From: Escherichia phage AN_ECEAS
Sequence record: PP944860.1
Reading direction: 5' to 3' (one strand)
Length of the DNA stretch: 48,081 bases
The notes beneath the pieces were generated by a model. The model had not been told where the DNA came from, ran no database searches, and saw nothing but the letters and a program-made list of their open reading frames with translations. Below, one piece after another: positions 6,104 through 29,146 of the stretch (its first letter is position 1; every line of letters starts with the position of its first letter). Position numbers and translations under genes: made by a program.

Positions 6104-6501
6104 TGCAATATGAACTATCTTTAGCAGCAAGGAGGTTTGTAACTGATTTGGTTAAAACATTTCCAGTCAGGTATCCAATCTCCTACGAAAACGTAGCCTT
6201 TTCTCCACCAAGAAATGGTGGGATGTGGCTGAAATACGACTATACTGAGGCTGATACAGTAACCTATAGCTTGAGTCGAAAGTGCAAATACTATGTAGGC
6301 ATGGTTCAGTTATCTGTCTTTTTCTCCCCTGGTGATGGCGTTGATAAAGCGAGGAAACTAGCTAATCAATTGGCAGAATCAATGCTTGATGGTACAATGC
6401 TTGACACAGGCTACATTTATGAGGGCGGAGTAGTTCACCCGGTAGTGAAGTCAAAATCTGGCTGGTTTATTCCAGTTCGTTTCTATGTTCGTCTTGACTA
6501 A
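6103..6501 (+). CDS. putative tail terminator protein
   Basis: Translationally coupled ORF immediately upstream of the major tail gene. Confidence 0.3.
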   Translation: MQYELSLAARRFVTDLVKTFPVRYPISYENVAFSPPRNGGMWLKYDYTEADTVTYSLSRKCKYYVGMVQLSVFFSPGDGVDKARKLANQLAESMLDGTMLDTGYIYEGGVVHPVVKSKSGWFIPVRFYVRLD

Positions 6502-6512
6502 AAGGAAAATAT

Positions 6513-7172
6513 ATGGCCCATCTCAGCAATGGCACCCAGGTGTTCGTAGAAGGCACCAGGGGTGATACTATCGACGTAACGGCAATTTCCAACGCTGTTA
6601 CTCCTGTTTTAACTTTGTCCAGCGTGGCAGACATTGCACGCGGTGACTACCTGTTGTTTACCAGCTCTGCTTCAACTCTGCTTGCTGATAAGCAAGTTCG
6701 CGTTACCGCTGTAACTGGTTCCACTGTAACTGTTGAAGGTATTGATACCTCCAGCACCACTAAGTTCCCTGCTGGTTTAACTGGTGAAGTGGTTAAGATT
6801 CTTAGCTGGTTTGAGGTTCCTTGCGTTCAAGACGTATCCACTGACGGCGGCGAGCAGCAGTTCGTTAACTTCCAGTGTTTGTCCGATAACCGTGAGCAAC
6901 AGATTCCAACTTACAAGTCCGCGGTAACCAACACCTATACGTTCGCGCACGAATACACCAACCCGGTATATCCGATTCTGCGTAACTATGATGAGTCTGG
7001 CCAGGTTGTTGCAATTCGCCTGTTCGTACCTCGAGCCAGTGAAATGCGTCTTCAGTCAGGAACTATCGCTTTCAACGACACCCCGAGCATTGGTGTTAAC
7101 GAAATCGAAACGGTATCCATCGCTGTTTCTATTCGCGGAAGGCTAAGTTCCGTAGCTTCTGAGCTAGCATAA
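6513..7172 (+). CDS. putative major tail protein
   Basis: 219 aa, RBS AAAAGGAAA, strong terminator downstream, precedes chaperone and tape-measure genes. Confidence 0.5.
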   Translation: MAHLSNGTQVFVEGTRGDTIDVTAISNAVTPVLTLSSVADIARGDYLLFTSSASTLLADKQVRVTAVTGSTVTVEGIDTSSTTKFPAGLTGEVVKILSWFEVPCVQDVSTDGGEQQFVNFQCLSDNREQQIPTYKSAVTNTYTFAHEYTNPVYPILRNYDESGQVVAIRLFVPRASEMRLQSGTIAFNDTPSIGVNEIETVSIAVSIRGRLSSVASELA

Positions 7173-26011: not shown

Positions 26012-29000
26012 ATGCTTCCAGTAGAGCGCTTAGTGGCAAACTTTGATCAAGAGAAAATCAAACAGATTCAGAAAGATTACCAGTTTGGAGACATAACTCC
26101 TTACGAATTCCAGTGTGTAACATTTGACGCAATTGGTAAGGCTATTGGTAAGTACGAGGCTCCATTCATCGCAGACCTGTCTGTATCTGCTGGTAAAACA
26201 ATAATTCTTGCCATGATTGGGAAAAGAATGGAGCAACTTGGACTTCCTTATATGGTACTGTCTCGCCAGTCAGAGATTATCAGCCAGAACGCAGAGGAAC
26301 TCCGTAACTTCGGTATCCGTAATAGCGTCTATTGCGCTGGACTTAACGTTAAATCAGTTTACTACCCAACCATAGTGGCTAGTGAGGGTACAGCTGCCAA
26401 TGGCCTGTTTAAGGGGCTTGGTGACTATGTTCCTGCTGTTATCGCGATAGATGAGTGCTTAACTGGAGACACGATGATAACCACCGATTCAGGGATGATG
26501 AGGATTGATAGCGAAGACCTTATCAATCATAAAATAAAATGCATAAACGAAAGCACTGGTGATTACTTCTATCATAAGCCAAAAAGAGTTTTTACTAATG
26601 GTGTAAGACATGTATCATCAATTAAATTAGAAAGCGGAGAGGAAATAAAATGCACGAGTACACACAAACTTTATTCGAACGGCTGCTGGGTAGGAGCGGG
26701 AAAACTTCGTATTGGGATGAATCTGTCGCTAGACGGCTCGCAGGACAAATTTACGAAAAAGCTCCTGCGTGCAAGTGTGGCTGTGGTGAAAAAGTTATGC
26801 CGCATTCAAGCAAGGGGTTAGGCGTACTTCTTAAGAACCCTTTCGATTTCTATTTGGATTACAGAACGGGGCATCATAATTCAACCGTCAACCCATCAAT
26901 GGAGGTTGATGACTTTTTACATCAAAACATTCTTGCGGCAATGGCTGGTGATGGTTGCTTGATTAAAAATACAGAAAAAGGAACGCATAGGCTATCTTGG
27001 AATATGGGAAATAAGGAGCACGCACTAAGCAAGGTTGAAAGGTTTGCAAAACTAAACCCTAGATACAGGGAGAAGAAAAACCCTGGATTTGGCGACAACT
27101 GGTTTTGCGTATCAACATCATGTACGAAAGTTCTGGATTCATATGCTGATAAGTACGGAAATTCTAAGGATGGTTACGATATTGGAAAGATATGCAGAGA
27201 GCTTGATCCAGTTGGTTGGGCTGCTTACTTTGGTGATGATGGTCATTGCACTGTAAGCTCAGGGAAGAGGGTTGTAGAAATCCACACCGAATCATTTAGC
27301 AGGCGTGAAGTTCAATCAGTAGTTGATGCGCTAATAGCATTTATTGCTAATGACGGAGTTAATGTTAGAAGCTATATTGGCGGCAAGAAAAAGAGAGAGC
27401 TTTACTCAGTATCAATAACAACGAGGTCGGCACAAGATGAGTTTTTTAAGAGAATTAGTAAGCACATGGAAAATGGCGTGGAATACAAAATCAAGCAAAA
27501 TTAAAGACATCTCACCCATTGGCAAGGAACTTGTTTGGGATATAGAGATGCCTGAGCACCATAATTTCATTGCTGACGGGGTCGTGGCACATAATTGCCA
27601 CATGGTGGACCATATGGATATCGTAGAAGCTGAAGAGAATGAGGAAACATTCGAGCAGATGAGCACGAAGAAGGGTGAGATGGTCTTTAAGGATGGTGTG
27701 AATACCGGGCTTCTTGGCACTGGTCGCGCGCAATACACGTTAATCATTACCGAAATGAAGCGTCGATGCAAGGAGAAGTACGGTCGCGAACTTCGTATCT
27801 TTGGGTTAACTGGTAGCCCGTACCGTAACAACGACCACATTGTAGTTAGTAACCCAAATGTCCGTGGATTCTGGCGCAAAACTGTAATGCAAGTGCCAAC
27901 CAGCTACCTTGTTGACTTGGGGTTCGTTGTTCCTACTGTCTACGGTGAAGTTGGTGATTTGGGCTACGACCTTAGTGAGTTCACTCCTGATGGAAGTGAT
28001 GGGGTTAAGGACTTCAGCAAGAAAGAAATGGATGCGATGGCTGCAAAGATTCACGAAAACCAAACGATGACACAAAAGATAATGGGATTTGCTGCTAGGT
28101 TTATGGAAACAAGGAATGCTGCATTGGTAACTTGCGCTGGCAAACAGCATTGCGAGGAGGCGGCAGCCGCACTTCCAGAAGGTGTTACTTGGGCGATAGT
28201 TACCAACTCCACTGGTGATAAGAAGCGTAGAGAGATACTTGAGAAGGCAGCCAGCGGAGAATATAAGTTCATATTTCAGATTGGTTGCCTCACAACTGGC
28301 GTAAACTGCCCCCCGTGGGATACAAGCATTATCCTGAGGAAGGTTGGTAGCATTACTCTACTCATTCAGTTGCTTGGTCGTGGTATGCGTATCCTTAAGA
28401 AGAAGCACAAAGAAGCTGGAATGGTAAAAGATGACCATGTTGTTCTTGATTTTGCCGGGACGCTTGACGATATGGCAGAACTCTACTTCGACCCAATTAT
28501 AGAAGAGGTTCAGGACCAGAAGTTTAAGTCATCCAGGAAAGGGGGTGATGAACCAAGAATTTGCCCAGCATGTTCTTATGAGAATTCTCCTTTCGCACGG
28601 CGCTGTAATAATGTGATTGACGGTAAACGATGCGAGCATTTTTTTCAGTTCCGTCTTTGCGAAGATATTGAGGACCCGCAGACGAAAGTTATCGTTAAGA
28701 AAGGTTGCGGAGAGAAAAATGACGTTGCAGCAAAGAACTGCCGCTGCTGCGGAGAGATGCTGATAGACCCAAATGCAAAGCTATCTGGAAAAATGTATCG
28801 GAAAGGGGACTGGTTGAGAGTTTATGACTTCAAGATTGGGTTGACAAAAAACCAGTCAGGGATCGTTGCTTCATATGAGGTAATGGCTCATAGTGGAGAT
28901 AAGTTCCGAGCTTATGAAACATTCTTCCCGGAGTCAGACCATCGTGTTTGTTCTGTCAAATGGAAGGCGTTTTGCTCAACTCACATCGAGAACAGGACTG

Positions 29001-29146
29001 AGGCTTTTAGGATTGGCAGATTGCGTAATGCTAAAATGATTATGACAAATGCACATCTTTTCCGTGCGCCGCTAAGGATTACGCACCGCAAGAATCAGAA
29101 GTCGCAAGATATTATCGCCAACAAATCATTTACGATGGAGGATTGA
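26012..29146 (+). CDS. SF2 DNA helicase interrupted by an intein in motif II (exteins 26012-26455 and 27596-29146)
   Basis: Walker A SVSAGKT; DE|CH box restored on splicing; motif VI QLLGRGMR; C-terminal zinc ribbons; reading frame is not continuous through the intein. Confidence 0.7.
26456..27595 (+). mobile_element. intein with LAGLIDADG homing-endonuclease domain (endonuclease domain in a different frame)
   Basis: N-terminal CLTGDT and block B TSTH; C-terminal ...HNFIADGVVAHN followed by Cys; two LAGLIDADG-like motifs ILAAMAGDGCL and WAAYFGDDGHC in ORF 26650..27504. Confidence 0.75.

Follow-up and report, generated by a model that had tools for sequence, protein, structure and literature searches.

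The 48,081-nucleotide stretch of Escherichia phage AN_ECEAS DNA analysed here (PP944860.1; hereafter the window) is identical in sequence to OR466728.1, the record of Escherichia phage ES (Drexlerviridae, Braunvirinae), and contains an interrupted gene for a RadD-like SF2 (DExH) helicase. As judged from the sequence, a 1140-bp mobile cassette (26456-27595) interrupts this gene within the codons of the DE|CH box (Walker B, or motif II). We read the cassette as a split intein combined with an overlapping gene for a LAGLIDADG endonuclease, and consider it very probable that trans-splicing restores the helicase while the endonuclease drives homing. All features described below lie on the plus strand. 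The N-extein (26012..26455) encodes the first 148 amino acids of the helicase and ends in ...AIDE. It matches the PHROG DNA helicase and ResIII profiles, and is collinear with the helicase of the intein-free relative P818. The C-extein (27596..29146) encodes 516 amino acids plus the stop, begins at the +1 Cys of DE|CH, and includes the Helicase_C domain (PF00271, E = 5.5e-9; RadD-like match, 150 bits); it too is collinear with P818. Removal of the cassette, joining 26012-26455 to 27596-29143, gives a 664-amino-acid protein that aligns without gaps to the 664-amino-acid P818 helicase with 92% identity. The resulting junction is AIDE|CHMVDH, by which DECH is rebuilt. Across lineages the core of the rebuilt site, GATGA(G/A)|TGCCA, is retained and its flanks have diverged. 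Some 45 related phages have an uninterrupted helicase gene, and DNA homology to them ends at ~26457; in the DNA comparison the helicase gene is kept in all relatives.

The N-terminal half of the intein (IntN; 26456..26821) has 121 amino acids followed by a TAG stop (26819-26821). It opens with Cys1 in the sequence CLTGDT, contains TSTH as block B (26654-26665), and is composed of a Hint core reaching to about residue 93 and a basic tail of 28 amino acids. It scores 33.0 bits against TIGR01445, the intein N-terminal region, for which the cutoff is 24.5. The C-terminal half (IntC; 27437..27595) has 53 amino acids, made up of a 13-14-amino-acid head (MSFLRELVSTWKM), the Hint C-core and the end ...HHNFIADGVVAHN. 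It scores 26.9 bits against TIGR01443, the intein C-terminal region (cutoff 15.6), and its boundary reads ...WDIEMPEHHNFIADGVVAHN|C, with VVAHN finishing at 27595 and the Cys+1 next. The locus thus has the N-terminal Cys and T-x-x-H, the terminal His-Asn with Cys+1, and the collinear exteins at a conserved site that characterize a class-1 intein. Residues C1, T67, H70, those of block F, H173, N174 and C175 (Cys+1) are invariant in six lineages. A profile of the joined halves matched solved mini-inteins, the top match being the Spl DnaX mini-intein (7cfv; E value 1.8e-21). In this alignment IntN residues 2-90 correspond to 7cfv 3-90, and IntC from AWNTK... corresponds to 7cfv 98-137; the break between 7cfv residues 90 and 98 indicates that the intein is split at the canonical endonuclease-insertion loop. 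Between 26821 and 27419 stops close the helicase frame (10 across the ES cassette), and it re-opens at 27419, six codons before the conserved IntC ATG at 27437. A Shine-Dalgarno (SD)-like GAGG is found at 27423..27426, 10 nucleotides upstream of this ATG, and GAGG, AAGGA, GAGGAAG, AGAGG or TAAGGA precedes the ATG in all lineages.

In every lineage a basic IntN tail (26735-26818; 25-30 amino acids across lineages; net charge +2 to +7) is combined with an acidic IntC core (-2 to -6). This polarity is the opposite of that in DnaE split inteins. It could help the halves to associate, or the charge of the tail could be a by-product of the overlapping endonuclease codons.

The endonuclease gene (26650..27504; 284 amino acids plus the stop) lies in frame -1 relative to the helicase, within a region open from stop to stop at 26626-27504, and its putative ATG is located within block B. 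An SD sequence, GGAGAGG (26636..26642), lies 7 nucleotides upstream of this ATG and within the intein codons S-G-E. An SD-like GGAG/GGTGAGG is present 7 nucleotides before the ATG in all seven lineages, the weakest being that of L009 (GGAGATA). Although gene callers sometimes pick later starts, in every lineage the frame is open from block B onwards, beginning with the conserved MH(E/G/Q)Y(T/S)Q. The start at 26797 given in GenBank was rejected; its ATG is missing in L005-L007 (VFP for VMP), and an invariant CKCGCG motif lies upstream of it. The product matches Pfam LAGLIDADG_2 (PF03161) with 29.2 bits against a gathering score of 25, as well as PHROG 11023. Its two LAGLIDADG motifs are encoded at 26929-26961 (ILAAMAGDGCL) and 27217-27249 (WAAYFGDDGHC), and the residues GDG (G100-D101-G102) and GDDG (G195-D196-D197-G198) are invariant in 19 homologues. 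The AlphaFold2 model (mean predicted local distance difference test score 85.3, with the core above 90; predicted template modelling score 0.75) has the pseudo-dimeric alpha-beta-beta-alpha-beta-beta-alpha fold. In the fold search I-WcaI (6x1j; E = 8e-10, TMt 0.70) and I-SceI were closest (TMt 0.68-0.70), as against a TMt of only 0.33 for the intein-embedded PI-SceI. A phmmer search of the endonuclease against PDB sequences gave no significant match. Because the fold is like that of I-SceI and I-WcaI, it is more likely that a free-standing or intron-type gene invaded a mini-intein than that an in-frame domain lost its frame by decay. The view that the gene is a frame-shifted relic of an endonuclease domain of the intein type is likewise disfavoured, given that the family is LAGLIDADG_2 and not LAGLIDADG_3, and that the fold is that of I-SceI/I-WcaI and not of PI-SceI.

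The CKCGCG motif (26770-26787; endonuclease residues 41-46) lies within the overlap with the IntN tail. It is preceded by A-P-x and is invariant in the seven phage lineages, and C-x-C-G-C-G occurs in all full-length homologues. The region is part of an N-terminal extension of about 90 amino acids that is modelled with a confidence of 55-80. The motif may be a small metal-binding or DNA-binding element.

A first-pass annotation of the same DNA had placed an intein between the E and C of the DECH box, with Cys1 at 26456, the TSTH block, a stop at 26819-26821, re-opening of the helicase frame at 27419 and VVAHN ending at 27595, and with a LAGLIDADG domain in a different frame (26626-27504) from both splicing regions. 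All of these positions were recovered, and the profile matches and the collinearity with P818 bear out both the intein and the out-of-frame domain. That annotation had concluded, in addition, that two compensating frame changes are needed to read through the cassette. This part does not stand, as each internal open reading frame (ORF) has its own conserved SD and ATG. The ATGs at 26650 and 27437, each with its SD, indicate three overlapping genes and not one broken gene. In OR466728.1 three coding sequences are annotated, 26012-26821, 26797-27504 and 27614-29146, under the names "minor tail protein", "hypothetical protein" and "putative single-stranded DNA binding protein", respectively, and the intein is unannotated. 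The starts of the second and third differ from 26650 and 27437, that of the third (27614) falling within the C-extein. In the Pectobacterium phage records the N fragment is left as a hypothetical protein.

The same layout is conserved well beyond ES. A tblastn search with the middle ORF detected five Pectobacterium phages of the Ymer group (42% identity over residues 1-281), among them Amona and Abuela, which have the same three ORFs in the same relative frames (the N and C parts in f, the endonuclease in f-1) and with similar overlaps. The layout is identical in three IMG/VR contigs (L005-L007; endonuclease identity 68-69%) and in three Logan contigs (L008-L010; 43-56%). In total, six further lineages, each sequenced independently, show the layout and relative frames at an endonuclease identity of 42-69%. 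Over all seven lineages, IntN has 118-123, the endonuclease 283-293, and IntC 53-56 amino acids; the 5' overlap measures 166-178 nucleotides, the 3' overlap 68-92 nucleotides, and the cassette 1140-1155 nucleotides. The first-pass annotation had proposed a comparison with related alleles, with and without the intein, and had considered that a corrected sequence might yield one continuous ORF. Comparison with the intein-free P818 confirmed the insertion at DE|CH, but the intein-bearing relatives share the frame break, and in none is there one continuous ORF with an in-frame LAGLIDADG domain, the helicase frame having 6-13 stops across the cassette in every lineage. A frame closed in this way means that the intein is split. 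The break in frame is genuine and is what defines a split intein; a single continuous ORF will not emerge from correction of the sequence.

Both junctions between the genes are dual-coding. The 5' overlap (26650..26821; 172 nucleotides) encodes IntN residues 65-121 and endonuclease residues 1-57, and the 3' overlap (27437..27504; 68 nucleotides) encodes the endonuclease C-terminus and the IntC head. Selection was assessed through the variability at each codon position in six lineages. For IntN residues 1-92, a stretch that includes the first ~28 overlap codons, variation is greatest at the wobble position of the intein frame. For residues 93-112, which cover the invariant AP-x-CKCGCG, it is the wobble position of the endonuclease frame that varies most, so that near IntN residue 93 the constraint changes frame, acting on the intein frame before this point and on the endonuclease frame after it. 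The 3' overlap is near-invariant at every codon position, and is read as TWKMAWNTK for IntC and as HMENGVEYK for the endonuclease. In the body of the endonuclease the variability is 0.60 at position 3, versus 0.42 and 0.34 at positions 1 and 2, respectively. This pattern indicates that purifying selection acts on each of the three frames, and speaks against decay.

Upstream of the endonuclease ATG, and inside the IntN coding sequence, there is a candidate sigma-70-like promoter, TTTACT-N16-TATCAT (26591..26618), which ends about 31 nucleotides before the ATG. The block GTGTATCAT(C/T)AAT(T/C)AAA (26610-26626) is invariant, synonymous sites included, across lineages with about 50% protein identity. 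Of the 10 third-codon positions that are invariant in the 45 upstream codons, eight fall within one 11-codon run. The embedded element may serve the endonuclease gene as a promoter or as an initiation region. A scan for promoters and terminators gave counts in the region that are not above those of shuffled sequences, and thus no firm evidence of separate transcription units.

The distribution of the element is sporadic, the intein being present in 6 of the 50,697 phage records. In a set of 5.8 billion proteins, all 20 homologues of the endonuclease are 167-294 amino acids long. All 37 strong matches to the Hint profile are proteins of 237-310 amino acids that cover the IntN part alone, and when 1.84 billion representatives were searched exhaustively with HMMER, some 25 clusters of proteins 236-313 amino acids long were obtained, in which IntN and its tail stand at the extreme C-terminus. 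Neither a contiguous nor an endonuclease-less form of the intein in the helicase was found in the 5.8-billion and 1.84-billion protein sets or in the phage records. The identities of inteins and exteins are incongruent between lineages. Between ES and L005 the exteins are 40-48% identical and the cassettes 67-70%, and between L005 and L008 the exteins are 76-79% and the cassettes 58-66% identical; this is as expected for a mobile element.

In the proposed mechanism, three proteins would be translated separately, probably from one transcript. The first would consist of helicase-N (148 amino acids) and IntN (121 amino acids), terminating at the TAG at 26819-26821. The second would be the endonuclease (284 amino acids), initiated in the -1 frame from GGAGAGG-N7-ATG in block B. 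The third, IntC (53 amino acids) joined to helicase-C (516 amino acids), would use an SD and ATG of its own that lie within the final part of the endonuclease gene. IntN and IntC would then associate and trans-splice to give the 664-amino-acid helicase with DECH restored. That the separately translated halves trans-splice is suggested by the conserved catalytic residues together with the selection on the intein frame. The endonuclease would cleave intein-free helicase alleles of co-infecting relatives at GATGAG|TGCCA, its putative target, and repair of the break would copy in the whole cassette; the sporadic distribution and the incongruent intein and extein identities are indirect evidence of such cleavage and homing. 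The element itself may have originated when a mini-intein was invaded by a free-standing or intron-type endonuclease gene, which corresponds to step II of the model of Dassa et al. (PMC2677866).

Several points weigh against this mechanism. Translation of the endonuclease would have to begin within an ORF that is itself being translated, which may be inefficient, and the candidate promoter is a consensus match backed by conservation at synonymous sites. Neither the 28-amino-acid tail of IntN nor the 13-14-amino-acid head of IntC has a counterpart in mini-inteins, and conservation of the overlaps alone cannot show which of the tail residues matter.

The explanation that survives best beside trans-splicing, though we regard it as unlikely, is that the intein is a decaying, non-splicing remnant, with the helicase either inactive and dispensable or else assembled without a covalent link from its two pieces, which the intein halves would keep together. 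Association could be the sole role of the additional tails at the split, and Aeh1 nrdA is a precedent for the non-covalent assembly of a gene product split by an endonuclease gene; the Aeh1 NrdA fragments are reported to be assembled by domains derived from a mobile element (PMC3045599). Against this reading, C1, the T..H of block B, block F, the terminal HN and Cys+1 are invariant across lineages whose inteins are only about 50-70% identical, and the wobble-biased variation shows the Hint frame to be under purifying selection. An unspliced Hint domain of ~170 residues inside the catalytic DECH box would moreover separate the Walker B residues, and the helicase is conserved in all relatives. 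Decay of the intein, one of the possibilities raised in the first-pass annotation, is also at odds with the conservation of the LAGLIDADG motifs, starts and SDs and with the purifying selection seen in each frame.

Recoding was raised there as well. It would call for a programmed -1 shift within 26740-26821 and a +1 shift within 27437-27504, giving a cis-splicing polyprotein with an in-frame endonuclease domain, and we hold it to be very improbable. The relative frames (-1, then +1) are conserved, and the ES helicase frame does contain a canonical G_GGA_AAA at 26698-26704 and a G_AAA_AAG-like site at 26788-26794. However, a scan of the 5' overlap for canonical heptamers revealed no conserved slippery site: GGGAAAA occurs in ES, L005, L006 and L008, and there is no canonical heptamer in the 5' overlap of L003, L009 and L010. 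GGGAAAA also precedes the end of the Hint core, where a shift would truncate the splicing domain, and the heptamer is probably incidental. At the endonuclease start, the single site examined with RNAalifold, the energy was -3 kcal/mol, with no covariation and no conserved structure. Two efficient shifts would be required for an essential protein, and the endonuclease fold is of the intron or free-standing type (I-SceI-like) and not of the intein-embedded type. Since both internal ORFs have a conserved SD and ATG, frameshifting is unnecessary and separate initiation is the simpler explanation.

Two compensating sequencing or assembly indels in the ES record, which would hide a contiguous intein of the usual kind whose LAGLIDADG domain is in frame, might be suspected from frame offsets of exactly -1 and then +1 in what is a single ES record identical to the window, but this has next to no chance of being true and is ruled out by the recurrence of the layout in the six other independently sequenced lineages at 42-69% endonuclease identity, with overlaps of 166-178 and 68-92 nucleotides that are not point events, with a conserved SD and ATG for each ORF, and with no contiguous relative in the 5.8-billion and 1.84-billion protein sets.

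With trans-splicing as the preferred reading, we tentatively propose that the overlaps act as an evolutionary lock on the element, and, with the same reserve, that the intein has changed its host gene between DnaX and the helicase through IDE|CHM; on balance we would not yet expect this proposal to hold. The candidate promoter, SD, ATG and first ~57 codons of the endonuclease gene sit inside essential intein sequence, and the SD, ATG and first ~20 codons of IntC in turn sit inside the endonuclease gene. Neither partner could then be deleted or degraded without disabling the reconstitution of the helicase. This would explain why split-plus-endonuclease forms are the only ones seen, and why mini-intein, endonuclease-less and contiguous forms are missing among about 40 protein clusters. 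An element locked in this way would be spared the decay and loss of the endonuclease that usually form part of the homing cycle.

As to the host-gene move, the nearest contiguous relatives are cyanobacterial DnaX inteins (P0079, P0083, P0087, P0104 and P0109), with 37-39% identity in the IntN region. The DnaX inteins are inserted at IIDE|CHML, and the helicase intein at AIDE|CHMV. These sequences suggest that the intein moved between non-homologous hosts, cyanobacterial DnaX and the phage SF2 helicase, via the shared Walker-B sequence IDE|CHM. A further DnaX sequence, P0129 (232 amino acids), is apparently an N-fragment that ends just after the Hint N-domain, and could represent either a split DnaX intein or a truncated contig.

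Other genes of the homing-endonuclease kind were observed around the helicase in related genomes. In P818 (L002 459-989) an annotated HNH gene is located just upstream of the primase/helicase block. In L007 an HNH-like ORF (6331-6915) lies between the helicase and a downstream VRR-NUC-like gene, and is lacking in L005 and L006, which are closely related to it. The replication module seems to be a hotspot of homing-endonuclease genes.

The reading given here removes an apparent anomaly, in that the frame breaks become the normal signature of a split intein, and it flags as wrong the database annotation of the helicase fragments. The long, conserved, out-of-frame overlaps are a clean natural case of overprinting, in which a selfish gene is set against the splicing element that shelters it, and they bear on how split inteins arise and persist. 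The phage grows on E. coli, which makes trans-splicing, start use and homing accessible to direct genetics. On the practical side, the locus offers a new natural split-intein pair (IntN 121 amino acids, IntC 53 amino acids, Cys+1) and an I-SceI-like nuclease with a predictable target. The literature searched contained no report of a LAGLIDADG gene lying between the halves of a split intein, although coverage was incomplete and this is not proof of absence. The intein and the endonuclease go unmentioned in the paper on the Ymer genus (PMC11445585).

Among known systems, the cyanobacterial DnaX inteins are the closest Hint sequences outside the family, and share with it the Cys1, ...HN and Cys+1 chemistry and a near-identical local site. 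Unlike the ES intein, they are contiguous, either as mini-inteins or with long in-frame inserts, reside in a cyanobacterial clamp-loader gene, and have no separate endonuclease ORF. The endonuclease has its nearest counterparts in I-SceI and I-WcaI, with which it has in common the double alpha-beta-beta-alpha-beta-beta-alpha core, the two LAGLIDADG motifs and the conserved acidic residues. Sequence identity to these enzymes is only 16-18%, the ES enzyme adds the N-terminal region of ~90 amino acids with C-x-C-G-C-G, and its gene is found inside a phage split intein and not in a mitochondrial group I intron.

Gosselin, Arsenault and Gogarten (bioRxiv 10.1101/2025.01.02.630785) described actinophage inteins that are contiguous and whose endonuclease ORF is out of frame or antisense. 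As in ES, the endonuclease there is not encoded in the splicing-domain frame, annotation pipelines easily overlook such loci, and the proposed origin is the invasion of an intein by a free-standing endonuclease gene. The frame of those inteins is, however, open, which implies cis-splicing, whereas that of the ES intein is closed by its 10 stops. Their out-of-frame case is endonuclease-VII-like and their LAGLIDADG cases are antisense, whereas the LAGLIDADG gene of ES is on the sense strand.

The arrangement most similar to that of ES is the "fractured gene" of Dassa, London, Stoddard, Schueler-Furman and Pietrokovski (2009; PMC2677866), exemplified by gp41-1, NrdJ-1 and IMPDH-1, in which the halves of a split intein flank a free-standing endonuclease gene. 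Both have the order N-extein-IntN, endonuclease gene on the same strand, IntC-C-extein, with the split at the endonuclease-insertion loop, and both occur in phage hosts, in an enzyme of DNA metabolism. In both the 3' end of the endonuclease gene overlaps IntC, by 68-92 nucleotides here and by 6-69 bp there. The endonuclease families differ, being LAGLIDADG (I-SceI-like) in our case and GIY-YIG or Vsr-like/EDxHD in theirs; the word LAGLIDADG is absent from that paper. With ES, LAGLIDADG, the commonest family of intein-associated endonucleases, thus joins the arrangement. The 2009 set has a non-coding spacer of 27-51 nucleotides between the IntN stop and the endonuclease start, whereas here there is no spacer, and the SD, ATG and first ~57 codons of the endonuclease are overprinted on IntN. 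The spacer is a descriptive trait of that set and not a functional requirement. The host gene in the present case is a RadD-like SF2 helicase, interrupted at DE|CH, and the element resides in a cultured coliphage and in Pectobacterium phages, whereas the earlier examples come only from ocean metagenomes. What is new relative to the loci of Dassa et al. is therefore the endonuclease family, the start inside block B with its long 5' overlap, the host gene and insertion site, and the occurrence in cultured enterobacterial phages.

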